Positions 19,657-41,080 of a DNA stretch of 64,000 bases are shown here, piece by piece. The stretch is from contig RHKY01000005.1 of assembly GCA_008363385.1 (NCBI GenBank), positions 18,254 to 82,253 of the forward strand, read 5' to 3'. Both the position numbers and the translations under genes were made by a program. The stretch's first letter is position 1, and each line of letters begins with the position of its first letter. The notes beneath the pieces were generated by a model. It was not told where the DNA came from. It did no database searches and saw nothing but the letters and a program-made list of their open reading frames with translations. Source of the stretch: Acidobacteriota bacterium. Its GTDB lineage: Bacteria > Acidobacteriota > Thermoanaerobaculia > UBA5066.

Positions 19657-19890
19657 TCAGAGCTCTTCGGGGACCGGGAAGCGGCCCGTGCCGCGGCAGC
19701 GGAGGCACCTCTGCTGCTCGACGGTCCGGACCTCGATCAGCCCCGTCCCGTGGCAGCCGGGGCAGTCGGTCCCGCCGTGCGTGGCGCCGCTGCCGCGGCA
19801 GAGGCCGCAGGCCGTCTCCTCGCCCTCCCTCGTGCAGCGCAGCTCGATCCACCCCTTGCCGCCACAGTCGGGGCACGCGTCCTTCGTCAC
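19657..19890 (-). CDS. Small stand-alone DnaJ-type zinc-finger protein (4 x CxxCxGxG)
   Basis: 77-aa product MTKDACPDCGGKGWIELRCTREGEETACGLCRGSGATHGGTDCPGCHGTGLIEVRTVEQQRCLRCRGTGRFPVPEEL. Its GTG start overlaps the protease TGA stop (GTGA). The longer upstream part of ORF 19657-20286 is Arg/Gly-rich junk. Confidence 0.65.
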   Translation of the reverse strand: MTKDACPDCGGKGWIELRCTREGEETACGLCRGSGATHGGTDCPGCHGTGLIEVRTVEQQRCLRCRGTGRFPVPEEL

Positions 19891-20366
19891 GGCGGCACCT
19901 CCTCTCCCTCCACCCATCCGAGGACCTCTTCGACCGCGCGGGGGACCGCGGCCTCGAGCTCGGGGCTGAGCCCCTCGCGGATCGTCGAGAGGTCGCGCGC
20001 CTCGGCGGCGAGGACGCGGACCGACGCCGGGAGGTCGTAGCCGAGCCGGTGTCCCAGCGCGAGCGCCGTCGCGAGGTCGAGCTGGTGCGACCCGCCGAGC
20101 GTCCGGCCGAGCGACGCCTCCTCGACCGGGACCTCCGAGAGCGACCCGGGCGGCCGCGCGCCGGTCGACACGACGTCGACGATCAGGGCGCGCTCGAACC
20201 CCGTCAGGAGGTCGAGCAGCCGGAAGCCGGCCACGGCCGCCGACTCCACCGCGACGTCGGGCCGGTCGCCGAGCCGCCCGGCGCACTCGGCGGCCACGCG
20301 CGGCCCGAACCCGTCGTCCGAGACGAGGTCGTTGCCGAGCCCGAGGACGAGCGCCCGTCCCGCCAC
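19887..20366 (-). CDS. [NiFe] hydrogenase maturation endopeptidase (HycI/HoxW/FrhD family)
   Basis: LVLGLGNDLVSDDGFGPRV N-terminal motif and GGSHQLDL. It lies immediately downstream of a large subunit that carries a C-terminal extension. Confidence 0.85.
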   Translation of the reverse strand: MAGRALVLGLGNDLVSDDGFGPRVAAECAGRLGDRPDVAVESAAVAGFRLLDLLTGFERALIVDVVSTGARPPGSLSEVPVEEASLGRTLGGSHQLDLATALALGHRLGYDLPASVRVLAAEARDLSTIREGLSPELEAAVPRAVEEVLGWVEGEEVPP

Positions 20367-20380
20367 CTCGGTCCTCCCCC

Positions 20381-21862
20381 TCAGCAGAACCGGCGGACGG
20401 TCTCCCGGAGGGTCCCGTCCGCCTCGTGGATCGAGATCTCCATCGGCATCTCGCCGTACGCCGCGTGCGTGGCGCAGCCGAAGCAGGGGTCGTAGGCGCG
20501 GAAGGCCATCTCGATCCGGTTCAGCGTGGCGTCGCGGACCTCGGTCCCCTTCCGGATCAGCGCCTCGGCGACCTTCTTGATCGACATGGAGATCGCGGCG
20601 TTGTTGTTCGTCGTCCCGACGATCAGGTTCGCCTCGGTGACGAACCCCTTCTCGTCCGTCCTGTAGTGGTGGGTCAGGATCCCCCGCGGGGCCTCGACGA
20701 TCCCGACCCCCTCGCCGACGATCCCCGTCGGCGGGACGTGGATCCGGTCGGAGGTGATCTCGTCGTCCTGGGCCTGCCGGAGGACCGCCTCGCAGGCGAA
20801 GACCATCTCGACGACGCGGGCCCAGTGGATCGCGAGCGTCGCGTGGACCGGGGCCTTCCCGCTCGCGTCCCCCGTCAGCGTCGAGTAGAGCCTCTCGTAC
20901 TCCTCCTGCGCGAGCGGCGTCGCCATGCCGGAGCTGACGTTCAGCCGGCTCATCGGCGTGGCGCGGTAGACCCCCGAGTCGGCCCCTTCCACGAGCCCCT
21001 TCCAGCCGACGGCCTTCAGGTACGGGACCTTCAGGTAGCTGTACGGCAGGACCGCCTCGGCGACGTGGGAGAGGTAGTCCTTCGGCTCGTACCGGCAGAG
21101 CTCGGCCCCCTCCGGGTCGACGACCCGGACGGTCCCGTCGTAGAAGGTCACCTTCCCGTCCGGGTCGGTCAGGCCGATGGAGTGCGTCCGGAGCGAGTAG
21201 GCCTCCGAGAGGACCATGTCGACGTAGGCGGGGTTCGAGAGGACGACGTCCTGGAAGACCTGGATCGTCGTCTTCCCGAACTCGACCATCTCCCGGCCGA
21301 TCTTGACCAGCTCCTGCTGCTCCTCCTTCGTCACCCGCTTGGACATCCCGCCCGGGAGGGCGGTCACCGGGTGGAGCGCCTTGCCGCCGATGATCTGGAC
21401 GACGCGCTGGCCGCGCGAGCGCTGCCTGACGACCTCGGCCCCCAGCTCGAGCCCCACCTTGGCGACGACGCCGAGGATGTTCCGCATCCCCTTCGGCGCG
21501 TCGGGGCCGACGACGAAGTCGGGCCCGCCGAGGGCGTAGAAGTGCGTCGTGTGGTCGCCGGCGTAGAAGCCGTTGTAGAGGAGCTCGCGGAGCTTCCGCG
21601 CGGCGGGCGGCGGGGTGACGCCGTAGACGGCGTCGGCCGCCTTCACCGAGGCCATGTGGTGCGCCTCGGGGCAGACGCCGCAGATCCGGGTCGTGATCCG
21701 GGGCATCTCCTCGACGGGCCGACCCTTGCAGAAGACCTCGAAGCCGCGCAGCTCGGGGACCTGGAAGTAGGCGTTCGCCAGGTTCCCCTCGTCGTCGAGG
21801 AAGAGGTGGATCTTCCCGTGCCCCTCCAGGCGCGTGACCGGGTCGATCGTGATCGATCTCAT
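20381..21862 (-). CDS. mvhA: [NiFe] hydrogenase large subunit, group 3 (MvhA-like)
   Basis: N-terminal RICGVCPEAH and C-terminal DPCFGCATH nickel-binding motifs, followed by a cleavable extension. The ATG overlaps the small-subunit stop (ATGA). Sequence upstream of MRSITIDPVTRLEGHG in ORF 20381-22561 is junk. Confidence 0.9.
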   Translation of the reverse strand: MRSITIDPVTRLEGHGKIHLFLDDEGNLANAYFQVPELRGFEVFCKGRPVEEMPRITTRICGVCPEAHHMASVKAADAVYGVTPPPAARKLRELLYNGFYAGDHTTHFYALGGPDFVVGPDAPKGMRNILGVVAKVGLELGAEVVRQRSRGQRVVQIIGGKALHPVTALPGGMSKRVTKEEQQELVKIGREMVEFGKTTIQVFQDVVLSNPAYVDMVLSEAYSLRTHSIGLTDPDGKVTFYDGTVRVVDPEGAELCRYEPKDYLSHVAEAVLPYSYLKVPYLKAVGWKGLVEGADSGVYRATPMSRLNVSSGMATPLAQEEYERLYSTLTGDASGKAPVHATLAIHWARVVEMVFACEAVLRQAQDDEITSDRIHVPPTGIVGEGVGIVEAPRGILTHHYRTDEKGFVTEANLIVGTTNNNAAISMSIKKVAEALIRKGTEVRDATLNRIEMAFRAYDPCFGCATHAAYGEMPMEISIHEADGTLRETVRRFC

Positions 21863-22848
21863 GCTCCGACCTGCTTTCGTCTCAGGAGCGAGCCCGGGAG
21901 GCTGAACCGGTAGAAGGTGCCGGCCAGGTCGGGGATCCCGGCGACGATCCGGTCGACCTCCTCGGGGTCGGTCGAGTCGATGACGCCCGCGATGGCCGAG
22001 GCCATCTTGGCCCCCTGGTCGGGGACGCCGAGCGGGGGGCCGTAGCAGCCGCGGCACGGGACGCCGGCCTTCACGCACTGGGCGCCGCAGCCGCCGCGCG
22101 TGGCCGGGCCCATGCAGAGCAGCCCCTGCTCCATCAGGCAGACCTCCGGGTCGGGGACGACCTCGTGCGGCCGGACGAAGCCGCGGATCTTCTTGACGTC
22201 CCGCTTCCGCGGGCACTCCTCGCAGCAGGCGCGCTCGCTCGCGCCGAGGACCGTCCCCTTCGGCGGCAGGGGCTTCCCGTGGGCGAGGACGTCCATGACG
22301 GCGTCCACCACCGCCACGATCTGCGACGGCTGCGGCGGGCAGCCCGGGACGAGGTAGTCGACGTCGACGACCTGCGGGAGCGTCCGGACCGTGTTCCACA
22401 GGCGCGGCAGCTCGAGCGTCCCCTCGGGGACCTCGTGCCGGGTCGCGGGCCGGACCTTCTCCGCGTTCGACGTGGAGGGCGAGTCCTCGTAGACGTACCG
22501 GAGGATCTCGTCGAGGGAGGTGAGGTTGGCCAGGCCCGGGATGCACCCGTCCGAGGCGCACGACCCGAAGGCGCAGAGGAGCTTCGACTTCCGCCGGAGG
22601 AGGAGCGCCAGCTCGTGGTTCTCCGAGCTCCGGATCGCGCCGTTGAACAGGGTCAGCGTGATCGCCCCGTCCGGCAGCGCCTCGACGTCCTCGTACTTGA
22701 AGTCGAGGACGCAGGGCCAGAAGACGACGTCGAAGAAGTCGGCGATCTCGAGGACCTTCAGCTCCGTGTCGAGGACCGCGATCTCGCAGCCCCCGCAGGA
22801 GGCCGCCCAGTAGAGCGCGAGCTTGGGCTTGGGCGTGAGCTTCTCCAT
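21859..22848 (-). CDS. mvhG: [NiFe] hydrogenase small subunit, group 3 (MvhG-like)
   Basis: ALYWAASCGGCEIAVLD...FGSCASDGCIPG and further Cys clusters, typical of cytoplasmic group 3 small subunits. No Tat signal. Confidence 0.85.
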   Translation of the reverse strand: MEKLTPKPKLALYWAASCGGCEIAVLDTELKVLEIADFFDVVFWPCVLDFKYEDVEALPDGAITLTLFNGAIRSSENHELALLLRRKSKLLCAFGSCASDGCIPGLANLTSLDEILRYVYEDSPSTSNAEKVRPATRHEVPEGTLELPRLWNTVRTLPQVVDVDYLVPGCPPQPSQIVAVVDAVMDVLAHGKPLPPKGTVLGASERACCEECPRKRDVKKIRGFVRPHEVVPDPEVCLMEQGLLCMGPATRGGCGAQCVKAGVPCRGCYGPPLGVPDQGAKMASAIAGVIDSTDPEEVDRIVAGIPDLAGTFYRFSLPGSLLRRKQVGA

Positions 22849-22855
22849 CGTCCCC

Positions 22856-23329
22856 TCACACGAGAGCGGGCGCCCCGGCGGCCGGCGCGAGCTCGGCCTC
22901 GGCCGCCTCGCGGTCGAAGGCGTGCTCGCCCAGGACGAGGGGGCCGAGCCTCCGGACCTCGTCCGTGAACTCGGCGACCAGCTCGCCGAACCGCTTCCCC
23001 TCCGAGGCCGAGACCCACTCGAGGCGGACCCGCCGCGGGTCGACCCCCAGGGCCTCCACGAGCCGCCGGGTGAGCGCCATCCGGCGGAGGCACTTGCTGT
23101 TGCCGTCAGCGTAGTGGCAGTCCCCCGGGTGGCAGCCGCAGACGAGGACGCCGTCCGCGCCCCGCGCGAGCGCCTCGAGGACGAAGCCCGGGTCGACGCG
23201 GCCGGAGCACATCACGCGGATCGGGCGGAGGTTCGGCGGGTACTTGATCCGCGCCGTCCCCGCCAGGTCGGCGCCCGTGTAGCTGCACCAGTTGCAGAGG
23301 AACCCGACGAGCTTCGGCTCGAAGGTCAT
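22856..23329 (-). CDS. mvhD: MvhD/FlpD-type [2Fe-2S] hydrogenase delta subunit
   Basis: MTFEPKLVGFLCNWCSYTGADLAG...IRVMCSGRVDP...VLVCGCHPGDCHY. The ATG overlaps the upstream stop (ATGA). Only the last 157 codons of ORF 22856-26998 look like protein. Confidence 0.85.
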   Translation of the reverse strand: MTFEPKLVGFLCNWCSYTGADLAGTARIKYPPNLRPIRVMCSGRVDPGFVLEALARGADGVLVCGCHPGDCHYADGNSKCLRRMALTRRLVEALGVDPRRVRLEWVSASEGKRFGELVAEFTDEVRRLGPLVLGEHAFDREAAEAELAPAAGAPALV

Positions 23330-25080
23330 GCCAGCACCCCCGCGATCTCGGCGCGGACCTGCTCGTCGGAGAAGTGGAGGGCCTTCACGGCCCCGCCCGG
23401 GCAGCCGGCCGCGCAGGTGCCGCACGCCTTGCAGAGGGCCGGGTTGACCCGCGACACCTTCTTCTCGCCGTCGTAGGAGATCGCCCCGTACGGGCAGAGG
23501 TCGTTGCAGAGGCGGCAGCCGCTGCAGACGGCCTCGTCCACCACCGCGAACGGGGCGTCCATCTCGACCTCGCCGCGGATCATGAGCGAGAGGGCCTGCG
23601 CGGCCGCGGCGCCCGCCTGGGCCACGGTGTCCGGGATGTCCTTCGGCCCCTGGCAGGCCCCGGCGATGAAGACGCCGTCCGTCGTCGTGGAGACCGGGCC
23701 GAGCTTGGGGTGCCGCTCGATGAACCACCCGTCCGCGCCCGTGGAGATCCCGAAGCGGCGCCCCGTCTCCTTGGCGTCCCCCTGCGCCTCCAGCGCGGTG
23801 CAGAGGATCACCATGTCGACGGGGACCTCCCGGAAGCGGCCCGCGAGCGTGTCCTCGCACCGGACGACGAGCGTCCCCTCCTGGTCCCCCCGCTCGGCGG
23901 CGACGACCTCGGCTCCCTTGCCCCGGATGACGTTGACCCCCTCGGTCAGGATCCGCTGGAAGAACTCCTCGTACCCCTTCCCGAAGGCGCGCAGGTCGAT
24001 GTAGAGCTGGTAGACCTGCGCCGCGGTCTTCTCCCTCACGAGGTGGGCGAACTTCAGCGCGTACATGCAGCAGACGCGGCTGCAGTACGGGTGGTGGTTC
24101 TCGTCGCGGCTCCCGATGCAGTGGAGGATCGCGATCGAGCGGGGCTCCTTCCCGTCCGACCGGAGGATCCGGCCGTTCGTGGAGCCGGCGGCATTGTTCA
24201 TCCGCTCGAACTCCATCGACGTGATGACGTCCGGGAGGCGGCCGTAGCCGTACGGCTTCAGCGGCGCGGGGTCGAGGTCCCTGAAGCCCGTCGCCAGGAC
24301 GACGGTCCCGGCGTCGACGACCTCGACCCGGCCCGCGTCCTCGTGGTCGATGCACTCCTTCGGGCAGACCTTCGCGCAGAGCTTGCAGCCGCCGGTCCGG
24401 AAGTGGACGCAGAGCTCGGGGTCGATCCGCGGCACGTTGGGGACCGCCTGGCGGAACGGGACGGAGATCGCGGCGTTCGGCCCGAGGGCGATCTCGGCGT
24501 GGACCACGTCGCGCCCGCCCATCTCCTCCATCCGGATGTGCCCCGTGGGGCAGAGGGCCGCGCAGGCCCCGCAGAGGATGCAGGCGTCGGCCTCCTCGTC
24601 GAACGGGGTCGTGACGACGCGGGAGGGGCCGCGCGACGTGAAGCCGAGGGCCTGCGCGCCGACGATCTCGTCGCAGACGCGGACGCAGAGGCCGCAGAGG
24701 ATGCAGGTGTCGGTCCCGGTCCCCCAGCGCGGCGTCTCGACGCCGAGCTTCCTCGCCAGCTCCGTGAGGACCGGCATCGGCGCGCAGCGGCTCATCAGCA
24801 TCTCGAGGTTCAGCCGCCGGGCGGCGAGGACGCGCGGCGTGCGCGTCCTGACCTCGAGACCGTCCTCGGCCGGGTAGTTGCACGACGTGACGATCCGCGT
24901 CCGCTTCCTCCGGTCCCTCACCTCGACGCAGCAGAGGCGGCAGGCGGCGTAGGGCGTGACGTACCGGTAGTAGCAGAGGGTCGGGATCTCGATCCCGAGC
25001 GCGGAGGCCGCCTCGAGCAGGTAGCTCCCCTCCTCCACCCGGGTCTCGATCCCGTCGATCGTGATGCGGACTTCTGCCAT
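23326..25080 (-). CDS. Fusion protein: HoxU/NuoG-N-terminal-like [2Fe-2S]+2x[4Fe-4S] domain :: C-terminal half of HdrA
   Basis: The N-terminus RITIDG...LCYY...ACRLCCVEV...SC, plus CILCGLCVRVC and CILCGACAALCP, resembles HoxU/NuoG/HydA N-termini. From AISVPFRQAVP onward it is colinear with the second half of HdrA: ILHCIGSRD...YCSRVCCMY, DLRAFGKGYEEF, DGVFIAGACQGPKDIPD, and a C-terminal CSGCRLCNDLCP...CKACGTCAAGCP. Confidence 0.85.
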   Translation of the reverse strand: MAEVRITIDGIETRVEEGSYLLEAASALGIEIPTLCYYRYVTPYAACRLCCVEVRDRRKRTRIVTSCNYPAEDGLEVRTRTPRVLAARRLNLEMLMSRCAPMPVLTELARKLGVETPRWGTGTDTCILCGLCVRVCDEIVGAQALGFTSRGPSRVVTTPFDEEADACILCGACAALCPTGHIRMEEMGGRDVVHAEIALGPNAAISVPFRQAVPNVPRIDPELCVHFRTGGCKLCAKVCPKECIDHEDAGRVEVVDAGTVVLATGFRDLDPAPLKPYGYGRLPDVITSMEFERMNNAAGSTNGRILRSDGKEPRSIAILHCIGSRDENHHPYCSRVCCMYALKFAHLVREKTAAQVYQLYIDLRAFGKGYEEFFQRILTEGVNVIRGKGAEVVAAERGDQEGTLVVRCEDTLAGRFREVPVDMVILCTALEAQGDAKETGRRFGISTGADGWFIERHPKLGPVSTTTDGVFIAGACQGPKDIPDTVAQAGAAAAQALSLMIRGEVEMDAPFAVVDEAVCSGCRLCNDLCPYGAISYDGEKKVSRVNPALCKACGTCAAGCPGGAVKALHFSDEQVRAEIAGVLA

Positions 25081-25092
25081 CTCCTCCGCTCC

Positions 25093-27102
25093 TCAGGCGG
25101 CCGCGGGCGCCTTCTCCCGCTCCTTCAGCGGCTTCCACCGCTGCCGGGCGCCCTCCTGGACCTGTCCCGCCTCGTCCCTCCTCACCCTCACGATCGCGTC
25201 GAACCGGCAGACCTGGTAGCAGGCGTCGCACCGGATGCAGCGGTCCTGGTCGACGACCTGCAGGGCCCTCGGCCCCCCGCTGATCGCGCCGGTGGGGCAG
25301 GACTTCGCGCAGAGCGCGTCGCCGACGCACGCCTCGTTGACCGCGTAGGAGACGAGCTCCTTGCAGACGCCCGCGGGGCACCGCTTCTCGAGGATGTGGG
25401 CGTCGTACTCCTGCCGGAAGTAGCGGATCGTCGACAGGACGGGGTTCGGGGCGCTGCCGCCCAGCTGGCAGAGGCTCGTGTCGACGAGGACGCCGCCGAT
25501 CTCCGCGAGGAGGTCGACGTCGCCCGGGCGCCCCTCCCCGCGGGTGATCCGGTCCAGCACGTCGTGGAGCATCCGGAGGCCCTCGCGGCAAGGGAGGCAC
25601 TTCCCGCAGGACTCCTCGATCAGGAAGTGGATGAAGTACTTCGCCACGTCGACCATGCAGGAGTCCTGGTCCATGACGATCATCCCGCCCGAGCCCATCA
25701 TCGAGCCGGCCTCGGTGAGCGCGTCGAAGTCGACCGGGAGGTCGAGGAGGCTCTCGGCCTTCTCGTCCTCGCGGATCCGCCCGCCGGCCACCATCGAGTC
25801 GTGGACCGCCTCGTCCCGCGTCTCGACGATGAGCGTCCCGCCCGACGGGCCGCCCGTCTGAACGGCCTTGAACTTCTTCCGCCCCGGGACGCCGCCGCCG
25901 ATGTCGTAGAGGATCTCCCGCAGCGTGATCCCCATCGGGACCTCGACGAGGCCCGTGTTCTGGATCTTCCCGGTCAGCGCGAAGAGCTTCGTCCCCTTCG
26001 ACCCCTCGGTCCCGATCGAGGCGTACCAGTCCGCCCCCTTCTCGACGATGAGGGGGACGTTGGCCCACGTCTCGACGTTGTTCAGGTTCGAGGGGCGGTC
26101 CCAGAGCCCGTGCTCGACCGTGTGGACGTACTTGGCGCGGGGCTCGCCGATCTTCCCCTCGAGCGAGGCCATGAGCGCGGTCGACTCCCCGCAGACGAAG
26201 GCCCCGCCCCCGCGGCTGACGTCGACGTCGAAGTCGAAGCCGGTCCCGAGGACGTCCTTGCCGAGGAGGCCCCGCTCCCGGGCGGCCTCGATGGCGATCC
26301 AGAGGTTCCTCACGGCCAGCCGGTACTCGTCGCGGACGTAGACGAACCCCTCGTGCGAGCCGATCGCGAACGCCCCGATCAGCATCCCCTCGATGACCGA
26401 GTGCGGGTTCCCCTCCAGGACGGCGCGGTCCATGAAGGCGCCGGGGTCCCCCTCGTCGGCGTTGCAGATGACGTACTTCGGCTCGCCCTTCGCCTTCCGG
26501 CACGACTCCCACTTCCGTCCCGCCGGGAAGCCGCCCCCGCCCCGCCCGCGCAGGCCCGCCCTCTTGACCGTCTCGATGACCTCCTCGGGCGCCATCGTCG
26601 AGAGCGCCTTGGCGGCCGCGGCGTACCCGCCGAGCGCGAGGTAGTCGTCGAGGCAGGTCGGGTCCATCAGCCGGTTCTTCCCGAGGATCAGGCGGAGCTG
26701 CTTGCGGTAGAACGGGACGTCCTCCTCCCGCTCCACCTTCTTCCCGGTCGCCGGGTCCTTGTAGAGGAGCTTCCCGACGACCTGACCGTGCTTGACCGTC
26801 TGCTCGACGATCAGCGGCACGTCCTCCGGCCGGATCCGCTGGTAGAAGACCCCGCTCGGCTGGATGCCGGCGAGCGGCCCCCGCTCGCAGAAGCCGCGGC
26901 AGCCCGTCAGCTTCAGGCGGACGACGTCCTGGAGCTTCTCGGCCTCGATCCGCTCCCGGAACGCCGCGGCCACGTCCTCGCACCCGCAGGCCAGGCACCC
27001 GGTGCCCGCGCAGAGGTGGATCGCGGTGACGTTCTCGTCGACCTCGGAGAGGAGCCGGGCCCGCTCGGCCGCGAGCGCCTCGGGGCTCCCGATCCGGCTC
27101 AC
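25093..27102 (-). CDS. NAD(P)H-binding FMN/Fe-S subunit, NuoF/HoxF/HydB (Bfu-type) with N-terminal 2Fe-2S and C-terminal 2x[4Fe-4S] domains
   Basis: GRGGGGFPAGRKW, ICNADEGDPGAF and ESCGKCLPCREG motifs. An N-terminal thioredoxin-like Cys cluster (CAGTGCLACGC...CRGFC) is present. The C-terminal end has CAKSCPTGAI...CIRCDACYQVC. The GTG start overlaps the NuoE-like stop (GTGA). Confidence 0.9.
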   Translation of the reverse strand: MSRIGSPEALAAERARLLSEVDENVTAIHLCAGTGCLACGCEDVAAAFRERIEAEKLQDVVRLKLTGCRGFCERGPLAGIQPSGVFYQRIRPEDVPLIVEQTVKHGQVVGKLLYKDPATGKKVEREEDVPFYRKQLRLILGKNRLMDPTCLDDYLALGGYAAAAKALSTMAPEEVIETVKRAGLRGRGGGGFPAGRKWESCRKAKGEPKYVICNADEGDPGAFMDRAVLEGNPHSVIEGMLIGAFAIGSHEGFVYVRDEYRLAVRNLWIAIEAARERGLLGKDVLGTGFDFDVDVSRGGGAFVCGESTALMASLEGKIGEPRAKYVHTVEHGLWDRPSNLNNVETWANVPLIVEKGADWYASIGTEGSKGTKLFALTGKIQNTGLVEVPMGITLREILYDIGGGVPGRKKFKAVQTGGPSGGTLIVETRDEAVHDSMVAGGRIREDEKAESLLDLPVDFDALTEAGSMMGSGGMIVMDQDSCMVDVAKYFIHFLIEESCGKCLPCREGLRMLHDVLDRITRGEGRPGDVDLLAEIGGVLVDTSLCQLGGSAPNPVLSTIRYFRQEYDAHILEKRCPAGVCKELVSYAVNEACVGDALCAKSCPTGAISGGPRALQVVDQDRCIRCDACYQVCRFDAIVRVRRDEAGQVQEGARQRWKPLKEREKAPAAA

Positions 27103-27635
27103 TTCCGCCTCCCGACGACCGCCCGCGCCTTCGGGGGCGCCGCGAGGACCTTCTCCACCATCTTCTCGACGTCCGTGACCGTCAGGTGCCCGTAGTACCG
27201 CTCGTCGGCGACCACCACCGGCCCGAGCGCGCAGGCGCCGACGCAGTTGACCGTCTCCAGCGTGAACTGCCGGTCCTCGGTCGTCCGCCCGCGCTCGACG
27301 TGGAGGTCGCGCTCGAGCTTCTCGAGGATGCTGCGCGAGTTCCGGACGTGGCAGGCGGTCCCCGTGCAGACACAGAGGCGGTGCTTCCCCTTCGGCTCCA
27401 GGCTGAACGCCTTGTAGAAGGTCGCGACCCCGTAGACCTGCGAGAGCGCGAGGTCCATCCGCCTCGCGATCCGCTTCAGCGCCGCGGCGGGGAGGTAGGA
27501 GAGCTCCTCCTGGACCTCCTGCAGGATCATGATGAGGGCGGTCGGCCGCGCCTCGTACGAGGCGACGATCTCGTCCACCCGCGAGAGCGAGACCTCCGCC
27601 TCGCGGGGCGGCTCGGCGACGGCGGCGTCACTCAT
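27099..27635 (-). CDS. NuoE/HoxE/HydC-like thioredoxin-fold [2Fe-2S] subunit
   Basis: LMILQEVQEELSYLP...ATFYKAF...CVCTGTACHV...VNCVGACALGPVV. Confidence 0.9.
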   Translation of the reverse strand: MSDAAVAEPPREAEVSLSRVDEIVASYEARPTALIMILQEVQEELSYLPAAALKRIARRMDLALSQVYGVATFYKAFSLEPKGKHRLCVCTGTACHVRNSRSILEKLERDLHVERGRTTEDRQFTLETVNCVGACALGPVVVADERYYGHLTVTDVEKMVEKVLAAPPKARAVVGRRK

Positions 27636-28557
27636 GGGCGGCCTCCTCCCCCTCCGGCAGGCCCGGCCGGCTGACGCGGTGCGCGTGGCGCTGCCCCGGC
27701 GCGAGCGAGCGCGGCGCCCCCTCCTTGTAGACCCGGCCCCCGAGTCTCATCCGGCGGCGCGCGGGGACGGCCCGGGAGGGGCAGGCGTCGTAGCAGGCCC
27801 CGCAGCCGTTGCAGCGCTTCACGTCGACGTACCGCGGGCGGACCCGGATCGTCGCCTGGAAGCTGCCGACGTACCCCTCGACCTTCTCGACCTCCGCGCC
27901 CGTGACGAGGCGGATCTTCGGGTGCTGCGCGACGGCGACCATCTTGGGCGTCAGGATGCAGGCGGCGCAGTCGAGGGTCGGGAACGTCTTGTCGAAGCTG
28001 ACCATGTGGCCGCCGATCGAGGTCTCCCGCTCGACGAGGACCACGTCGAAGCCGGCGTCGGCCATCTGGAGCGCCGCCTCGATCCCGGCGATCCCGCCCC
28101 CGACGACGAGCGCCCGCCGCCGGATCGCGACCCGCCGCATCTCCAGCGGCTCCTGCAGCGCGACGCGCCGCACCGCGGCGGCGACCATCGCGCGCGCCTT
28201 CTCCGTGGCGGCGGGCCCCTTCTCCGAGACCCACGAGACCTGCTCGCGGACGTTCGCCATCGCGAAGAGGTACCGGTTCAGCCCCGCCTTCTCGACGGCC
28301 TTGCGGAACGTCGGCTCGTGCATCAGCGGGCTGCACGCGGCGACGACGACGCGGGTGAGGCCCAGCTCCCGGACGTCGCGCTGGATCAGCTCCTGCCCAG
28401 GGTCGCTGCACATGAACTTGTAGTGGCGCGCCACGACGACGCCCGGCGCGGCGGCCGAGGCGGCCGCCACGGCCTCCACGTCGACGGTCTTGGCGATGTT
28501 CGTCCCGCAGTGGCAGACGTAGACGCCGATCCGCACCCCGCCGTTCCCGTCGCTCAC
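27628..28557 (-). CDS. N-terminal half of heterodisulfide reductase subunit A (HdrA)
   Basis: RIGVYVCHCGTNIAKTVDVEAV...KFMCSDPGQELIQ...VVVAACSP..HEPTFR, the FAD motif ALVVGGGIAGIEAAL, DKTFPTLDCAACILTPKM, and finally RPRYVDVKRCNGCGACYDACP. It is colinear with the first ~300 aa of HdrA as I recall it from methanogens. The GTG start overlaps the hdrB stop (GTGA). The 3' end overlaps the nuoE-like start by 8 nt. Confidence 0.85.
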   Translation of the reverse strand: MSDGNGGVRIGVYVCHCGTNIAKTVDVEAVAAASAAAPGVVVARHYKFMCSDPGQELIQRDVRELGLTRVVVAACSPLMHEPTFRKAVEKAGLNRYLFAMANVREQVSWVSEKGPAATEKARAMVAAAVRRVALQEPLEMRRVAIRRRALVVGGGIAGIEAALQMADAGFDVVLVERETSIGGHMVSFDKTFPTLDCAACILTPKMVAVAQHPKIRLVTGAEVEKVEGYVGSFQATIRVRPRYVDVKRCNGCGACYDACPSRAVPARRRMRLGGRVYKEGAPRSLAPGQRHAHRVSRPGLPEGEEAAHE

Positions 28558-29432
28558 GCGTGCACCTCCGCGGCGGACCTGCCGAGCGCCGTGCCGTCCA
28601 CGAGGAGCGCGTCGAGGAGCATCTCCTCGGCCGTGAAGCCGAGCGCCAGCCCGACGAGCTGGGTGAAGTAGACGACCGGCAGGTGGAAGTCCGTCCCGTG
28701 GACCCGGTTGATCCGCCCCTGGTACGCCTCCAGGTTCAGCTGGCACATCGGGCAGGTGGTGGCGAGCACCTCCGCGCCGTTCTGGACCGCCGCCGTCAGG
28801 ATGTCCCGGTTCAGCTTCAGGGCGACCGCCTCGCTCGTCGTCATCAGCATCCCGCCGCAGCAGCGGAGCTTCGCGGGGAAGGGGACCGGCTCGGCGCCGA
28901 GCGCCGAGAGGAGGTTGTCGAGCTGCTGCGGGTCCTCGCGGTCGTCGTACGTCCCCTTCGGGCGGACGAGCTGGCAGCCGTAGTAGGGCGCCACGCGCAG
29001 CCCCCCGAGCGAGCGGACCGCCCGCTCCCGGACCCGCTCGACGCCGTAATAGGTCGTCAGGACGAAGAGCGGGTGGAGGACCTCGAGCCCGGCCTGGTAC
29101 GAGAGCCCGGCGGCGCCGAGGACCTGGTTGATGTCCTTCTTGCGCGCCTCGTCCCAGCGCATGTGCCGGTTCACCTTCGAGAGGATCGTGAAGCAGGAGC
29201 TGCACGGGGCGCAGACGTCGAGCCCCATCCTCTCCGCGTACGCCAGGTTGCGCGCCGAGAGGGCGTAGGCCGTCAGCTTGTTCATGGCGATGTAGGACGT
29301 GGCCCCGCAGCAGTTCCAGTCCTCGATCTCCTTGAGGCCGATCCCGAGGCGCTCGAAGACGAGCCGCACCGAGACGTCGTACGGGCGGCCGGTCGCCTCG
29401 AGGCTGCAGCCGGGGTAGTAGGCGTACTCCAT
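28554..29432 (-). CDS. hdrB: Heterodisulfide reductase subunit B-like (two CCG domains)
   Basis: MEYAYYPGCSLE...EDWNCCGATS and YYGCQ...KLRCCGGMLM...TCPMCQ. Confidence 0.85.
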   Translation of the reverse strand: MEYAYYPGCSLEATGRPYDVSVRLVFERLGIGLKEIEDWNCCGATSYIAMNKLTAYALSARNLAYAERMGLDVCAPCSSCFTILSKVNRHMRWDEARKKDINQVLGAAGLSYQAGLEVLHPLFVLTTYYGVERVRERAVRSLGGLRVAPYYGCQLVRPKGTYDDREDPQQLDNLLSALGAEPVPFPAKLRCCGGMLMTTSEAVALKLNRDILTAAVQNGAEVLATTCPMCQLNLEAYQGRINRVHGTDFHLPVVYFTQLVGLALGFTAEEMLLDALLVDGTALGRSAAEVHA

Positions 29433-30028
29433 CAGAGCCCCCCCATGGACTGCGCCTTGTCGATGATGGCCCGCACCTCGTGGATCCTCTTCACGCGCGC
29501 GGGCAGGAGCGCGAGGCGCTTCTTCCGGAGGAGGCCGAGCGCGAAGCGGTGCAGGTCGGGCGAGAGGAGCTTCGCGGGCCCGGCGGCGAGGTAGTACTTG
29601 AACCCGAGCCAGATCTCCCAGTTCCGCCCCCAGTCGCGGACGTTCCGGGTGAAGGCGTCGGCCAGCGCGTGGACCGGGAAGCTCCGGGGGAAGACCTTCT
29701 TCTTCTCGGCCACCCGCTTCAGCGCGTAGAGGCTGTCCGTGACCCGGATCCCGGCCGGGCACCGGACGGCGCAGGCGTAGCACGACGCGCACATCCAGAT
29801 CGCCCGGCTCCGCAGGATCTCCTCGAGGAAGCCCGCCCGGAAGAGCGCCACGACCTGTCGCGGCGTGATGTCCATCGCCGGGGCGACGGGGCACGACCCG
29901 GTGCAGGTGCCGCACTGGATGCAGTTCAGGATCCGGTAGCCGTCGGGGAAGGTGCCGACCTGGTCCCAGAAGGCGGCGCGCAGCTCCGCCTCGCGCCGGG
30001 GAAGGGACGCCGCGGGGGGTGACGTCAT
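29432..30028 (-). CDS. hdrC: Heterodisulfide reductase subunit C-like (2x[4Fe-4S])
   Basis: CIQCGTCTGSCPV and CASCYACAVRCPAGI. The stop shares one nt with the hdrB ATG (TGATG). The upstream part of ORF 29432-31534 is junk. Confidence 0.8.
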   Translation of the reverse strand: MTSPPAASLPRREAELRAAFWDQVGTFPDGYRILNCIQCGTCTGSCPVAPAMDITPRQVVALFRAGFLEEILRSRAIWMCASCYACAVRCPAGIRVTDSLYALKRVAEKKKVFPRSFPVHALADAFTRNVRDWGRNWEIWLGFKYYLAAGPAKLLSPDLHRFALGLLRKKRLALLPARVKRIHEVRAIIDKAQSMGGL

Positions 30029-30112
30029 GGAGCCTCTCCTGGCGGGACCGGACCCTCCCCGCACACGGCGGGGCGGCCGGGCCGTCCTGTCGGGTTCGTC
30101 GCGCGGGGTGTT

Positions 30113-30128
30113 TGCAATCGACGAGCCG
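30113..30128 (-). promoter_or_regulatory. Candidate sigma-54 (-24/-12) promoter for the hdr-hox-mvh operon
   Basis: The minus strand reads CGGCTCGTCGATTGCA. The GG and GC dinucleotides have the canonical spacing of TGGCACG-N4-TTGC(A/T). It lies about 85 nt upstream of the hdrC ATG and directly downstream of a sigma-54-dependent regulator gene. There are two mismatches to the consensus (T to C before GG, A to T in GGCAC). Confidence 0.45.
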
Positions 30129-30177: not shown

Positions 30178-31611
30178 TTACCGGCCGGCGTCCCGCGGCG
30201 GGCGCGCGTCCCGCCCGGACGGAGGGGGAGATTCGCCCCCGCCGGGGGCATTTCGCCCCCGTTCGCGGAGCCCGTACTCCCGGACCTTCCGCGAGAGGGT
30301 CTTCCGGTCGATCCCGAGGAGCGCCGCGGCGCGCCCGACGCGCCAGCCGGTCATCTCCAGCACCTTCCGGACGTGCTGCGCCTCGAGCCCCGACAGGCTC
30401 AGGTCGTCGCGGTCGGCCCCTGCCGAAGGCGCCTCCGCGCCCCGGCGCGGCAGCGGGAGGTCCTCCGGGCCGATCTCGGGCCCGCGCGCGAGGACCAGCG
30501 CGCGCTCGAGCGCGTTCTCCAGCTCGCGCACGTTCCCGGGCCACGCCTCCTCGACGAGGCGCGAGACCGCGGCCTCCCCGAGCGTGCGCGGCTGGAATCC
30601 CTTCCGCCGGACGAGGCGCTCGACGAGCGCCCGGGCCAGCGCCGGGATCTCCTCCCTCCGTTCCCTCAGCGGCGGGACCGGGACGACGACGACGCTCAGC
30701 CGGTAGAAGAGGTCCTCCCGGAACCGGCCGGCCGCGATGAGCGCCCGTAGGTCGCGGTTCGTCGCGGCCAGGATCCTCACGTCCACCCTCACGGTGGCGT
30801 TCCCGCCGACGGGCGTGATCTCCCGCTCCTGCAGGACGCGCAGGAGCTTGGCCTGCAGGGCCAGGTCGAGGTTCCCCAGCTCGTCGAGGAAGAGCGACCC
30901 GCCGTCGGCCTGGACGAACCGGCCGGGCCGCTCGGCCGTCGCGCCCGTGAACGCCCCCTTCACGTGCCCGAACAGCTCGGCCTCGCAGAGCGTCTCGACG
31001 AGGGCGCCGCAGTCGACGACGAGGAACGGCCCGTCGCGGCGCGGGCTCAGCCGGTGGATCGCCCTGGCCACCAGCTCCTTGCCCGTGCCGCTCTCGCCGA
31101 GGACCAGGACGGTGGACTGGGTCGGGGCGACCCGCTCGATCAGCTCGCGGACGCGCTGCATCGACGGGCTGTCGCCGAGGAGCTCGTCCTCCTCCGCCCC
31201 GCGGAGCCCCTTCCGGAGCGCGTCGTTCTCCGCGACGAGCCGCCGTTTCTCGAGCGCCCGGGCCACGGCGAGGCGCAGCGAGTCGACGTCGAACGGCTTC
31301 GGCAGGTAGTCGCAGGCGCCCAGGCGCATGCAGTCGACGGCCGACGGCACGCTCGAGTAGCCCGTGACCACGATCGCCTCGGCCTGGGGGCAGAGCGTCC
31401 GGAGCCTCCGGAGGAGCTCCTCCCCCCCCATCCCCGGCATGCGGAGGTCGAGGACGACGACGTCGGGCCGCCGCGCCTGGACGAGCTTGAGCGCCTCGAA
31501 CGCGTCCCGGGCCGTCTCCACCTCGTGGCCGCACCGCTCGAGCGCCTTCCGGCAGGAGTCGCGGATCACCTCCTCGTCGTCCACGACGAGGACCCTCGCG
31601 GGGGCGCTCAC
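30178..31611 (-). CDS. Sigma-54-dependent response regulator (NtrC family: REC + AAA+ + Fis-type HTH)
   Basis: Receiver VLVVDDEEVIR...VVLDLRMPGMGG...KP. AAA+ motifs VLVLGESGTGKE, the GAFTGA loop, LFLDELG, RFREDLFYRL. C-terminal HTH AAALLGIDRKTLSRKVREYGL. The GTG start overlaps the kinase stop (GTGA). Confidence 0.9.
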   Translation of the reverse strand: MSAPARVLVVDDEEVIRDSCRKALERCGHEVETARDAFEALKLVQARRPDVVVLDLRMPGMGGEELLRRLRTLCPQAEAIVVTGYSSVPSAVDCMRLGACDYLPKPFDVDSLRLAVARALEKRRLVAENDALRKGLRGAEEDELLGDSPSMQRVRELIERVAPTQSTVLVLGESGTGKELVARAIHRLSPRRDGPFLVVDCGALVETLCEAELFGHVKGAFTGATAERPGRFVQADGGSLFLDELGNLDLALQAKLLRVLQEREITPVGGNATVRVDVRILAATNRDLRALIAAGRFREDLFYRLSVVVVPVPPLRERREEIPALARALVERLVRRKGFQPRTLGEAAVSRLVEEAWPGNVRELENALERALVLARGPEIGPEDLPLPRRGAEAPSAGADRDDLSLSGLEAQHVRKVLEMTGWRVGRAAALLGIDRKTLSRKVREYGLRERGRNAPGGGESPPPSGRDARPPRDAGR

Positions 31612-32741
31612 GCTCCCTCCGGGGCGAGCGGGAGGAGGACGCGCACGGTCGTGCCGGCGCCCGGGACGCTCTGGATGTCGATCCCGCCGCGGTGCTGCTC
31701 GACGATGCCGTAGCTGATCGCCAGCCCCAGCCCGACCCCCTCGCCGACCTCCTTCGTCGAGAAGAACGGGTCGAAGACGCGCGGGAGGTCCTCGGCGGCG
31801 ATCCCCGCCCCCGTGTCGCTGACGGCCACCCGGCAGGTGCCGGGCTTCTCCGAGAAGCCGCTCCGCACCGTCAGCTCGCCGCCGTCCTTCATCGCGTCGA
31901 GCGCGTTGAGGACCACGTTGACGAAGACCTGCTGCAGCTTCGCCGGGTCCGCCTCGACCGGCAGCGGGAGCGGGCTCAGCTCGGTCCGGACGCGGACCGC
32001 CTGGAGCCGGGGCTGGCGCGCGAGGAGGCCGAGGACGGAGAGGACGACCTCGTTCAGGTCGACGCGGCGCAGCTCCGCGGGTGTCTGCCGCGCGAAGTCG
32101 AGGAGCCCCTTCACGATCTCCTTGGCGCGGGCGGCCTGCACGGCGATCCGCTCCATCTCGCCGCGGCGCGGGTCCTCGGCGGGGGTCGCCTCCACGAGGA
32201 GGTTCGCGTAGAGCAGGATCGCCCCGAGCGGGTTGTTGATCTCGTGGGCCACGCCCGCGGCCAGCCGGCCGGCCGTGGCGAGCCGCTCGGCCTGGCGGAC
32301 CCTCTCCTCGGCCTCCAGGCGGTTCGTCTCGTGCGAGCGCTGGAGGGAGGCGGCCATCTGGTCGAGCGCCTTCCGGAGCCTCGAAAGCCTCCGCCCCGCC
32401 CCGGGCGTACGGTGCGAGAGCTCCCCCCCCGCCCACCGGCGGGCCGACTGGACGAGCGCGTCCTCCTCGGCCGAGACGGAGCGGAGGAGCGCGAAGAGGG
32501 CGGCCGCGAAGGCCGAGGCCGCGAGGAGCCCGCAGCCGGCCAGGAGGGCCGGGAGCCCCGGGCCTGCGGGGAGGGACCCTCGGCCTGGCCAGACCGAGAG
32601 GACGAGCGCGGGCGTGGCGGCCGCCGCTCCCGCCGCCGCGAGGAGGAGGACCGCCCCCGGCTCCCTGCGCGACCGCCGCGGGCCGCTCTCGAGCCCGTCC
32701 GTCCCCTCGCCGACCCCGTGGCCCGGACCTGTCGCGGACAA
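31608..32741 (-). CDS. Sensor histidine kinase (two TM helices with a very short loop, HisKA, HATPase_c)
   Basis: H-box AAGVAHEINNPLG, N-box NVVLNALDAM, G-boxes DTGAGI and GVGLGLAISYGIVEQHRG. The start is uncertain. The TTG at 32741 is the first candidate that does not overlap the upstream gene. The ORF itself extends to 32960. Confidence 0.75.
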   Translation of the reverse strand: MSATGPGHGVGEGTDGLESGPRRSRREPGAVLLLAAAGAAAATPALVLSVWPGRGSLPAGPGLPALLAGCGLLAASAFAAALFALLRSVSAEEDALVQSARRWAGGELSHRTPGAGRRLSRLRKALDQMAASLQRSHETNRLEAEERVRQAERLATAGRLAAGVAHEINNPLGAILLYANLLVEATPAEDPRRGEMERIAVQAARAKEIVKGLLDFARQTPAELRRVDLNEVVLSVLGLLARQPRLQAVRVRTELSPLPLPVEADPAKLQQVFVNVVLNALDAMKDGGELTVRSGFSEKPGTCRVAVSDTGAGIAAEDLPRVFDPFFSTKEVGEGVGLGLAISYGIVEQHRGGIDIQSVPGAGTTVRVLLPLAPEGA

Positions 32742-38992: not shown

Positions 38993-38993
38993 G

Positions 38994-39548
38994 ATGGGCG
39001 CCCCGCGCGACGACGCCCGCCACGCGATGACCGCCGACACGCGCCTCTGCGTCGGGTGCAAGGCGTGCGTCCTGGCCTGCAAGGCCGAGAACGCCGTCCC
39101 CGACGGCCTCAGCCGCGACTGGATCGTCGAGGAGGTCCGCGGCGAGTTCCCGGCCCTCTCGGCCGAGATCCGCTCCGAGCGGTGCAACCACTGCTCCGAC
39201 GCCCCCTGCGTGAAGGCCTGCCCCACCGGGGCGAGCTGGGTCGCCGAGGGGGGCGTCGTCCTGGTGACGCACGGCAAGTGCTCGGGCTGCAAGGCCTGCA
39301 TCAGCGCCTGCCCGTACGACGCCCGCTTCGTCCACCCCGAGGGATACGTCGACAAGTGCACCTTCTGCCTCCACCGGGTGCAGAAGGGGCTCGCCCCCGC
39401 CTGCGCGACCGTCTGCCCGACCGGGGCGCTGACGTTCGGGGACCGGAACGACCCGGAGTCGGCCGTGGCCCGCCAGCTCGCGAGCCGGCGCTCGAAGGTG
39501 AAGCACCCCGAGAGCGGCGCCGGCCCGAACCTCTTCTTCCTGCTGTGA
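38994..39548 (+). CDS. 4x[4Fe-4S] electron-transfer subunit (PsrB/NrfC/DmsB family)
   Basis: CVGCKACVLACKAEN, CNHCSDAPCVKACPTGA, CSGCKACISACPYDA, CTFC...CATVCPTGA. Confidence 0.85.
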   Translation: MGAPRDDARHAMTADTRLCVGCKACVLACKAENAVPDGLSRDWIVEEVRGEFPALSAEIRSERCNHCSDAPCVKACPTGASWVAEGGVVLVTHGKCSGCKACISACPYDARFVHPEGYVDKCTFCLHRVQKGLAPACATVCPTGALTFGDRNDPESAVARQLASRRSKVKHPESGAGPNLFFLL

Positions 39549-39555
39549 GGCCGCG

Positions 39556-40524: not shown

Positions 40525-40537
40525 AGAGGTGAGCCCG

Positions 40538-41080
40538 ATGTCGCACCCCGATCCCGCAGTCGCCCCCCCGGCCGAGCGGCCGTTCTGGAACCCCTACGTG
40601 GCGGGCGTCGTCCTCGGCCTCGTCCTCCTCTCCTCGTTCCTCGCCATGGGGTGGGGCCTCGGCTCCTCCAGCGCCGCCACGCGCCTGGCCGTCGGGGCGG
40701 CCCACGTCGTCGTGCCCGGCCCCGTCGAGCGGAACGCCTACTTCTCGCAGTACGTCGGGGGCGGGCGGAACGCGCTCGACGACTGGATGGTCTTCGAGGT
40801 GCTCGGCGTCTTCCTCGGAGGGGCTCTCGCGGCCTACTCGGGCGGGCGGATGAAGCTGGGCTGGGAGAAGGGGCCGACCACGTCGAAGGGGACCCGCCTC
40901 CTCTACGCGATCGCGGGCGGCGTCCTGATGGGCTTCGCCGCTCGCCTCGCCCGCGGCTGCACGTCGGGCCAGGCCCTGACGGGCGGCGCGGTCCTCGGCC
41001 TCGGCTCGTGGGTCTTCATGATGGCGGTCTTCGCCGGCGGCTACCTCGTCGCCCCGTTCGTGAAGAGGCAGTGGCGATGA
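40538..41080 (+). CDS. YeeE/YedE-family sulfur-compound transporter half-protein
   Basis: ARLARGCTSGQALTGG signature and four hydrophobic helices. A GAAGAGGTGA RBS-like stretch precedes ATG 40538. An in-frame GTG at 40529 is also possible. Confidence 0.8.
   Translation: MSHPDPAVAPPAERPFWNPYVAGVVLGLVLLSSFLAMGWGLGSSSAATRLAVGAAHVVVPGPVERNAYFSQYVGGGRNALDDWMVFEVLGVFLGGALAAYSGGRMKLGWEKGPTTSKGTRLLYAIAGGVLMGFAARLARGCTSGQALTGGAVLGLGSWVFMMAVFAGGYLVAPFVKRQWR

Follow-up and report, generated by a model that had tools for sequence, protein, structure and literature searches.

A Bfu cassette within the split hdrA of an acidobacterial hdr-mvh operon

An operon that encodes an Mvh-type [NiFe] hydrogenase, a heterodisulfide reductase (Hdr) and a NuoEF-like module of the Bfu type was analysed in contig RHKY01000005.1 of the Acidobacteriota assembly GCA_008363385.1, within a stretch of 64,000 nucleotides (positions 18,254 to 82,253, ~73% G+C) that is referred to as the window throughout. 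We find that hdrA is broken in this operon by a bfuC-bfuB-bfuA cassette, that the last gene of the cassette is fused to the remainder of hdrA, and that the arrangement recurs in several phyla. We propose, giving the idea about even chances, that the products form one soluble multi-subunit enzyme, Mvh-Hdr-Bfu, with the Bfu module lying in the low-potential arm of HdrA, which would couple the oxidation of H2 to the reduction of a disulfide and of NAD+ and ferredoxin. What appears to be new here is the arrangement itself; the modules are known, and the concept has precedents in Bam, the class II benzoyl-CoA reductase, and in the HdrA-NfnB fusions of the anaerobic methanotrophic archaea ANME-1.

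The operon and the break in hdrA

The operon consists of eleven consecutive co-oriented genes, most of them overlapping, on the minus strand between 19657 and 30028, as judged from a listing of open reading frames (ORFs), their translations and a gene caller based on third-position GC. The order is hdrC, hdrB, hdrA-N, bfuC, bfuB, bfuA::hdrA-C, mvhD, mvhG, mvhA, a hydrogenase maturation endopeptidase gene and a gene for a zinc-finger protein, and it agrees in number, strand and sequence of genes with a preliminary description that had been made from the letters and reading frames of this DNA. All seven overlapping junctions listed there are found exactly as described, namely TGATG at 29432, GTGA at 28554-28557, an overlap of 8 nucleotides at 27628-27635, GTGA at 27099-27102, ATGA at 23326-23329, ATGA at 21859-21862 and GTGA at 19887-19890, and at the other three junctions the genes stand 12, 7 and 14 nucleotides apart. 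The operon start had been placed at 30128 and has to be moved, since hdrC begins with the ATG at 30028, which is preceded by GGAGAGG, and the extra 100 nucleotides hold a sigma-54-like element that is discussed further below. The GC-based caller supports all frames of the operon but that of mvhD, which it missed; mvhD is called because it appears in the ORF listing and has a FlpD match. On its coding strand the operon contains neither a sigma-70-like promoter nor a terminator-like hairpin. Pfam and NCBIfam scans, a check that the preliminary description had suggested, agree with each of the domain assignments given below.

That hdrA comes as an N-terminal and a C-terminal half had also been noticed earlier, and the gene is indeed split, but it is not merely halved: the break lies between the two cysteine motifs of the so-called inserted ferredoxin domain, with the three Bfu genes intervening and BfuA fused to the C-terminal part. 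The first part, hdrA-N (27628-28557), encodes 309 residues that hold the N-terminal iron-sulfur domain, the GGGIAG motif binding flavin adenine dinucleotide (FAD), Cys197/200 and the first CX2CX2CX3CP motif of the inserted ferredoxin domain, and its residues 9-261 align with residues 13-266 of the HdrA of structure 8rvu (4e-98). It ends with CNGCGACYDACP and then a tail of 47 residues, which is arginine-rich and looks like junk for a high-GC genome and which is nonetheless conserved across the related loci L001-L009 described below, as CPSRPxPxxRRMxxxGRVYKEGxPRxLA...KHxHRVSRTG. The fusion protein (bfuA::hdrA-C, 23326-25080; 584 residues with Fer2_4 and Fer4 domains) resumes at AISVPFRQAVP and continues with C224...CKLCAKVCP, in agreement with the canonical sequence after the first motif; its residues 4-189 match residues 5-190 of WorA (9MQX_A, 1e-35) and its residues 163-582 match residues 239-641 of HdrA (1e-109). 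The HdrA2 profile is tiled without overlap by HdrA-N (positions 1-257), the fusion protein (262-640) and MvhD (647-773). Alignments to the HdrA of 8rvu/8rvv and the location of motifs show that none of the HdrA cysteines is lost in the operon and that its FAD, CCG and nickel motifs are likewise complete, the conserved cofactor sites of HdrA being the FAD motif, the cysteines of the N-terminal cluster, Cys197 and the motifs of the inserted and C-terminal ferredoxin domains. A single-polypeptide HdrA with a contiguous inserted ferredoxin domain is thus lacking here, and unsplit canonical forms are found in loci L011-L057.

According to published structures, the low-potential electron leaves the bifurcating FAD by the inserted ferredoxin domain, which leads to free ferredoxin or, in the super-complexes of methanogens, is hard-wired to polyferredoxins (PMC9012536, PMC13518236). 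This domain seems to be particularly prone to remodelling. In a bacterial metagenome-assembled genome with hdrCB-hdrA-mvhDGA (L039:3464-7000), HdrA is one protein of 1178 residues, and a GltD/NfnB-like NAD(P)H-FAD domain interrupts its inserted ferredoxin domain where the Bfu cassette does so in the window, a bacterial counterpart of the ANME-1 HdrA-NfnB fusions. In two loci labelled Bacteroidota (L052:9278-11125 and L053) the Mvh-linked HdrA has 615 residues and is without the inserted ferredoxin domain, and upstream of it stand a second HdrA-like gene and one for a membrane-bound HdrE-like iron-sulfur protein.

The conclusion that the modules form a single complex rests on gene fusions and not on synteny alone. 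All members of the family (>120 clusters) have BfuA as a covalent fusion with HdrA-C; in two distant relatives recovered by an exhaustive search, L075 and L076, HdrA-N and BfuC are a single protein of 423 residues; and in P0130 (JGI 3300042731; 660 residues) one chain contains the FAD part of HdrA and, behind a linker, BfuA and the remainder of HdrA. When the different lineages are taken together, these fusions connect the Bfu trimer with HdrA at each of its two ends. It might be objected that Mvh-Hdr and a separate BfuBC NADH:ferredoxin oxidoreductase are independent enzymes that are simply transcribed together, as synteny by itself is no proof of a complex. This is in poor agreement with an hdrA that is broken by the cassette, with the BfuA::HdrA-C fusion in all members and the HdrA-N::BfuC fusion in L075 and L076, and with the division of the inserted ferredoxin domain between two chains, whose halves have to come together before the clusters can be bound, and we consider it very improbable. 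The earlier statement that both modules are encoded as one unit is therefore strengthened by the fusions, Hdr, the NuoEF-type module with flavin mononucleotide (FMN) and the Mvh-type hydrogenase being joined indeed.

The relatives that supply these fusions differ in their surroundings. While hdrA-N and bfuC overlap by 8 nucleotides in different frames at 27628-27635 of the window, they are a single ORF in L075 and L076, and neither of these two loci has a hydrogenase. The order at L075:2796-11941 is acyl-CoA dehydrogenase, etfB, etfA, the core and an HdrD-like gene, and at L076:363-9928 it is etfA, hdrC, hdrB and the core, followed by a CCG protein of 630 residues, with MvhD fused to the end of BfuA::HdrA-C. 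P0130 has a Bam-like neighbourhood, in which an AOR-family gene is found together with a Fer4_11 gene and with another gene of the HdrA kind.

The search of genome databases for the same synteny that the preliminary description had recommended finds the operon in several phyla. The fusion protein is represented by >120 full-length clusters at 61-82% identity, and a genome scan combined with tblastn gives the same gene order in nine loci (L001-L009), five of which span the whole operon while the rest are cut by contig ends; they are labelled Thermoanaerobaculaceae, Terriglobia, Acidobacteria, Eisenbacteria and Zixibacteria. In two more relatives, at 65-67% identity, the 10-11 genes are found again on contigs of 4.3 Mb and 1.3 Mb, where the flanking regions are unrelated. 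The 10-11-gene order is thus kept in L001-L009, L071 and L073, and it is varied in L010 (labelled Chlorobiaceae, 41% GC), where hdrA is split in the same way and extra genes stand between hdrA-N and bfuC. These occupy ~4 kb (L010:3432-8125) and, as read by eye from their translations, resemble regulatory genes of the DRTGG, PHP and ATPase types and the 438-residue iron-sulfur protein of HydABC operons; L010 further has a 2Fe-2S-like ORF after bfuC and hypA-, hypB- and hypF-like ORFs after the protease gene.

The recurrence also decides the question of artefacts. The possibility that the split hdrA is a pseudogene created by an assembly or frameshift error has the odd-looking arginine-rich tail of HdrA-N in its favour and nothing else, whereas split and tail are conserved in independent assemblies of several phyla with GC contents from 41% to 73%, and the third-position GC calling backs each frame except that of mvhD, which is carried by its FlpD match; the probability of such an error must be considered vanishingly small. 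A chimeric assembly, which the preliminary description had named as a danger to its conclusion, is likewise excluded, because the operon recurs in each assembly inspected, including the contigs of 4.3 Mb and 1.3 Mb. Both candidates were rejected on the recurrence of split, tail and gene order in many assemblies.

As to the origin of the arrangement, >40 loci of Chloroflexota have hdrCB, an unsplit hdrA, mvhDGA and the protease gene without any Bfu genes. In a neighbour-joining tree of MvhA, which took in sequences of the retrieved loci only, the sequences of Bfu-containing operons cluster together, with the exception of L010, which falls in a neighbouring group. The simplest history is that a bfuCBA cassette was inserted into the hdrA of an ordinary bacterial hdrCBA-mvhDGA operon.

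Identity of the Bfu and Mvh-Hdr modules

The NuoEF-like genes had been described as a diaphorase of the HoxEFU/Bfu type, and it is the Bfu part of this label that stands. The product of bfuC (NuoE/HydC-like; 27099-27635, 178 residues) holds the [2Fe-2S] cluster site C1, with a PF01257 match at 2.5e-49 and the motifs CTGTAC and CVGAC. The product of bfuB (NuoF/HydB-like; 25093-27102, 669 residues) has, in order, an N-terminal 2Fe-2S domain (B5), the FMN/NADH domain, SLBB, a 4Fe-4S domain (B1), the B2 ligands and a C-terminal 2x[4Fe-4S] domain (B3/B4). Pfam matches are PF01512, PF10589, 2Fe-2S_thioredx at residues 26-101 and Fer4 at 589-637, and the SCGKCLPC and SLC motifs of the B1 cluster are both present. 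Residues 1-190 of the fusion protein are a Type-2 BfuA with the 2Fe-2S cluster A1, two 4Fe-4S clusters on two CX2CX2CX3C motifs and no His-ligated cluster; no NADH-G_4Fe-4S_3 match was obtained for this part in the Pfam scan, only A1, A2 and A4 being represented while the His-ligated A3 and A5 are absent.

According to the survey of Bfu enzymes, non-bifurcating homologues are without clusters B2-B5 (PMC9304861). The ligands of B2 in the Acetomicrobium mobile enzyme are C438, C476 (or Thr), H525, C531 and C536 (PMC9304861), and C482, T520, H569, C575 and C580 of the BfuB studied here align to them, the Thr being shared with about two-thirds of BfuB sequences (PMC9304861). The full-length matches of BfuB among PDB chains are furthermore to proven bifurcating enzymes, first WorB (9mqx_B, 5e-220) and NiFe-HydB (7t2r_B, 2e-218) and then several HydB and NfnB chains. 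A HoxE profile is the top NCBIfam match of BfuC but stays under its cutoff, and the HoxU profile scores 101 bits on the fusion protein against a cutoff of 333 and covers residues 4-97 only. We therefore assign the module to the Bfu type and not to the HoxEFU type, because B2-B5 are present, BfuA is of Type 2 and the Hox profiles are far under their cutoffs; its NuoEF-like genes are predicted to encode BfuC and BfuB with all the clusters specific to bifurcation. The HoxEFU reading was rejected on these profile scores, on the PDB ranking, on the presence of B2-B5 and on the missing His-ligated cluster of HoxU. The two systems do share an NAD(P)-linked NuoEFG-type module beside a group 3 [NiFe] hydrogenase, the known counterpart being the bidirectional hydrogenase HoxEFU-HoxYH (group 3d), but non-bifurcating BfuB homologues of the type of the Ralstonia NAD-reducing hydrogenase lack B2-B5 (PMC9304861), which the operon has.

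Two features set this BfuB apart. An insert of 24 residues (424-447) at the boundary of the FMN and 4Fe-4S domains is found only in the window, in those of L001-L009 that have the gene and in L071/L072, and an Asp ligand, discussed with the electron flow below, is common to those of L001-L009 with bfuB, the Cys being retained in L071. This Asp in the C-terminal ferredoxin motif is one of the two arguments for taking the NuoEF-like proteins as a simple NAD(H) diaphorase, so that the enzyme would be an NAD-linked hydrogenase or an NADH:disulfide reductase with no role for ferredoxin; the other is that many non-bifurcating enzymes contain NuoF homologues (PMC5861303, PMC9304861). Such an enzyme seems improbable, since the His/Cys set of B2, B5 and the B3/B4 domains are present and conserved where the non-bifurcating homologues of the survey have no B2-B5, and since every one of the nearest relatives with a solved structure is a proven bifurcating enzyme.

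The Mvh-type hydrogenase recognised in the preliminary description is confirmed by the best PDB match of MvhA, by both nickel motifs and by the presence of MvhG and MvhD in the same operon as hdrCBA. MvhA (20381-21862), the large subunit of 493 residues, has RICGVCPEAH at 59-68, DPCFGCATH at 458-466 and a C-terminal extension of 27 residues; it matches the VhuA profile at 3.6e-113, under the methanogen-specific cutoff, and among PDB chains it is closest to MvhA of M. wolfeii (5odc_F, 8.6e-117), followed by the A. mobile NiFe-Bfu enzyme (7t2r_D, 1e-110). It is also nearer to Mvh than to the NAD-reducing hydrogenase in this comparison (9e-117 versus 6e-94). MvhG (21859-22848), the small subunit of 329 residues, has a PF01058 match and fits the VhuG profile at 1.5e-61, and MvhD (22856-23329; 157 residues) is a [2Fe-2S] adaptor with a FlpD match (PF02662, 2e-53) and a VhuD match. 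HdrC (29432-30028; 198 residues) is recognised by Fer4_8 and by TIGR03290 (HdrC) and carries CX2CX2CX3C twice, at residues 36-46 and 80-90. HdrB (28554-29432; 292 residues; TIGR03288 at 8e-55) has two complete PF02754 (CCG) domains, which are sites of non-cubane clusters, with the pattern C...CC...CxxC at 9-80 and 153-230; its best profile matches are SdhE-like and HdrB, both under cutoff. The cofactor ligands of MvhAGD, HdrA on its two chains, HdrB, HdrC and the BfuBC core thus all appear to be intact.

Compared with the group 3c complex MvhAGD-HdrABC of methanogens (5ODC, 8RVU), each of the six subunit types has its counterpart, which is also the best match (MvhA 9e-117, HdrA ~1e-98 to 1e-109), cofactor ligands are conserved, and the order hdrCBA-mvhDGA-protease is that of bacterial relatives. 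The operon differs in that HdrA is made of two polypeptides with three Bfu genes between them and in that its low-potential exit domain is fused to BfuA and does not face free ferredoxin or polyferredoxin; the host being a bacterium, coenzymes M and B are furthermore not expected. Compared with the Type-2 Wor-Bfu tungsten enzyme WorABCSL (9MQX), BfuB and BfuC are close full-length homologues, with FMN, B1-B5 and C1, and BfuA likewise has A1, A2 and A4. The operon differs from the Type-2 Bfu family in that its 'third substrate' module is an entire Mvh-Hdr attached by gene fusion, and in the clade-specific 24-residue insert and the Asp ligand of its BfuB. The NiFe-HydABCSL enzyme of A. mobile (7T2R) resembles it in joining a [NiFe] hydrogenase to BfuABC (HydB 2e-218, large subunit 1e-110), but there the small subunit of the hydrogenase is attached directly, via A3, to a long BfuA of Type 3, and HdrA, HdrBC, MvhD and a disulfide are missing; in the operon BfuA is of the short Type 2 and fused to HdrA, and MvhD, HdrB and HdrC are present.

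The operon ends with two small genes. The endopeptidase (19887-20366; 159 residues) belongs to PF01750 (HycI) and TIGR00072 (1.3e-29). The last gene (19657-19890) encodes a DnaJ-type zinc-finger protein of 77 residues with four CXXCXGXG motifs and weak matches to PF00684 and PF15777 under cutoff; it is kept at the end of the operon in L001-L003, L006, L007, L009 and L073/L074, at identities down to 65% (L073), and a role in assembly, or even as a thiol/disulfide partner, is conceivable.

Proposed electron flow, its alternatives and known systems

In the proposed Mvh-Hdr-Bfu enzyme H2 would be oxidised at the [NiFe] site of MvhA and the FAD of HdrA reduced. The high-potential electron would pass by HdrC to HdrB and on to a disulfide that is left unspecified here, whereas the low-potential electron would not be released on free ferredoxin and would travel over two interface clusters into BfuA (A4, A2, A1) and from there to BfuB/BfuC. 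Cluster B1 and FMN would follow, and from there electrons would be split between NAD+ and, by way of the clusters C1/B2/B3/B4, ferredoxin. The net reaction would be approximately 4 H2 + 2 RSSR' + NAD+ + 2 Fd(ox) -> 4 thiols + NADH + 2 Fd(red), where Fd is ferredoxin, and it is probably reversible. While the inventory of cofactors and the fusions are read from the sequence itself, we infer the route and direction from published roles of the domains. Type-2 BfuA delivers to the BfuBC core via cluster A4 (PMC9304861). With working potentials of -280 mV for NAD(H) and -500 mV for ferredoxin (PMC9304861), the NAD+/ferredoxin pair has a calculated mean of ~-390 mV against ~-500 mV for ferredoxin alone, so the low-potential arm would be ~110 mV less demanding. 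The H2 potential required would be relaxed by ~55 mV, which corresponds to a roughly 70-fold lower H2 pressure than in canonical Mvh-Hdr, whatever the disulfide, because ferredoxin alone is replaced by the pair.

Several observations weigh against this enzyme or against the direction given to it. No gene for a thiol cofactor or a DsrC-like protein that would indicate the disulfide is found in the operon. An AlphaFold2 monomer model of the fusion protein, built from an alignment of 33 sequences, has a mean predicted local distance difference test score (pLDDT) of 63.6 and a predicted template modelling score (pTM) of 0.37 and is confident for the 2Fe-2S domain of BfuA alone. The first C-terminal ferredoxin motif of BfuB (592-602) reads CVGDALCAKSCP, that is CxxDxxCxxxCP, with Asp for the second Cys. 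The direction of the Bfu arm, moreover, cannot be read from the sequence, and in Bam, the only described enzyme with HdrA and BfuABC and the sole one characterised, Bfu has been proposed to donate mid-potential electrons to HdrA and not to take up low-potential ones (PMC9304861). Since BfuA is inserted in HdrA also in the Bam-like cluster of P0130, beside AOR-family genes, its attachment point in HdrA may be an input.

These last points lead to an alternative polarity of the same complex, modelled on Bam, in which BfuBC would confurcate NADH and reduced ferredoxin and send electrons of ~-400 mV into the FAD of HdrA by way of the inserted ferredoxin domain, with Mvh as a second, interchangeable donor or as a sink by H2 evolution and the disulfide as the high-potential acceptor. 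Besides the published proposal for Bam-Bfu (PMC9304861) and the insertion in P0130, it is favoured by the reversibility of Bfu enzymes and by the existence of a core linked to ETF and acyl-CoA dehydrogenase without hydrogenase, the core therefore being independent of H2. Such a polarity would however leave HdrA with two mid-potential arms and no low-potential one, making bifurcation at FAD impossible unless H2 evolution is the low-potential branch, and structures give the inserted ferredoxin domain as the low-potential branch; on balance we regard it as rather unlikely, though by some way the strongest of the alternatives to H2-driven Mvh-Hdr-Bfu.

Bam itself (BamBCDEFGHI) resembles the operon in having an HdrA-type FAD module, an MvhD-like subunit, a CCG protein and BfuABC (BamGHI) (PMC9304861), and Bam-like loci (L058, L065 and L067) have NuoF and BfuA homologues at 48-60% identity. 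It differs in its tungsten AOR subunit BamB, in having no hydrogenase and in its substrate benzoyl-CoA, and no AOR-family domain such as those of BamB/BamC was matched by the operon products in the Pfam scans. A somewhat broader idea, which we put forward tentatively and at less than even chances, is that of a modular 'Hdr-Bfu core', in which BfuCBA would lie in the low-potential arm of HdrA, the FAD and FMN/FeS (iron-sulfur) sites would work in series and the input modules would vary: Mvh hydrogenase in several phyla, ETF/acyl-CoA dehydrogenase in L075 and L076, and an AOR/Bam-like module. If it is true, the Mvh version would be a tandem-bifurcating hydrogenase making NADH and reduced ferredoxin from low levels of H2 at the cost of a bacterial disulfide.

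The preliminary description had expected two potential bifurcating flavin sites and had named no earlier account of such an arrangement. Both sites are intact, but the idea of two sites is not without precedent, as Bam-Bfu and the HdrA-NfnB proteins of ANME-1 demonstrate. In the latter (HdrA9-11) an NfnB insertion of 500 residues occupies the same HdrA domain, and two bifurcation sites were considered possible by the authors (Chadwick et al. 2022, PMC9012536). That insertion is a single NfnB/GltD-like domain in one polypeptide, unlike the three-gene FMN/FeS Bfu module that splits the gene here, and it has not been described with the hydrogenase family of the operon. To the earlier statement that known Mvh-Hdr complexes use no pyridine nucleotide it has to be added that Hdr complexes linked to NAD(P)H are known, such as MetFV-HdrABC-MvhD, though not with Mvh (PMC5861303). 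A full-text search of the literature yielded no description of Mvh-Hdr with NuoEF/Bfu genes or of a split hdrA, and a prior mention is possible. The classification of Bfu enzymes by Schut et al. (2022) comprises twelve types, FeFe, NiFe, Nfn, Fdh, F420, Wor, Bam, Codh, Por, Mbh, Nuo and Rub and has no Mvh/Hdr type, and the supplement of the same survey has no Hdr/Mvh entry (PMC9304861).

The operon may show how the bifurcation devices of HdrA-FAD and of Bfu FMN/FeS are coupled, a question that stands for Bam as well, and it supplies a natural fusion ready for structural work. If the threshold argument given above holds, it would explain how Acidobacteriota, Eisenbacteria and Zixibacteria of soils and sediments obtain low-potential reductant from scarce H2. 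Among uncultured anaerobes, Hdr-linked bacterial hydrogenases of group 3c are widespread, and a published genome study describes both what they do and which disulfide they use as unknown (PMC5317091); the Mvh-Hdr-Bfu variant points to the output side, that is NAD(H) and ferredoxin.

Upstream regulators and other genes of the window

Directly upstream of the operon and likewise on the minus strand are found an NtrC-type response regulator and sigma-54 activator (30178-31611; Response_reg, Sigma54_activat and HTH_8 in Pfam) and a sensor histidine kinase (31608-32741; HisKA and HATPase_c). In L001-L004, L007 and L009 the activator gene likewise immediately precedes hdrC, with 60-65% identity, and in L001-L004 and L007 the operon is directly preceded by orthologues of the kinase gene with 60-62% identity. 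The candidate sigma-54 promoter (-24/-12) lies at 30114-30128 on the minus strand and reads CGGCTCGTCGATTGCA / CGGCTCGTCGATTGC, with GG-N10-GC spacing. By itself the motif is not above chance in the window, where 13 matches at 2 mismatches compare with 24 expected, and it gains weight only because its position is conserved in relatives, TGGCAC/T-N5-xTGC elements being found ~85-165 nucleotides upstream of hdrC in the window, L001-L004, L007 and L009. Expression of the operon is thus probably dependent on sigma-54 and under the control of the adjacent kinase/activator pair.

Other genes of the window are mentioned for completeness. A divergent cluster at 36740-42264 encodes a molybdopterin oxidoreductase with a twin-arginine translocation (Tat) signal, a 4Fe-4S subunit and an NrfD membrane subunit of the Psr/Phs-like kind, and is followed by genes for two YeeE/YedE sulfur-transport proteins, one of them with a weak, sub-threshold match to a rhodanese domain. 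These psr-like and sulfur-transporter genes have no matches in L001-L010 or L071/L072 and are for this reason not used as a clue to the disulfide. Two very large proteins, probably secreted, are encoded at 32929-35745 and 8755-14370; one has 939 residues and many '(E)LW.SDGT..GT' repeats, and the other has 1872 residues. At 54902-58751, finally, a fused dihydropyrimidine-dehydrogenase-like protein of 831 residues (Fer4_20, Pyr_redox_2 and DHO_dh) is followed by an amidohydrolase, which suggests reductive pyrimidine catabolism.

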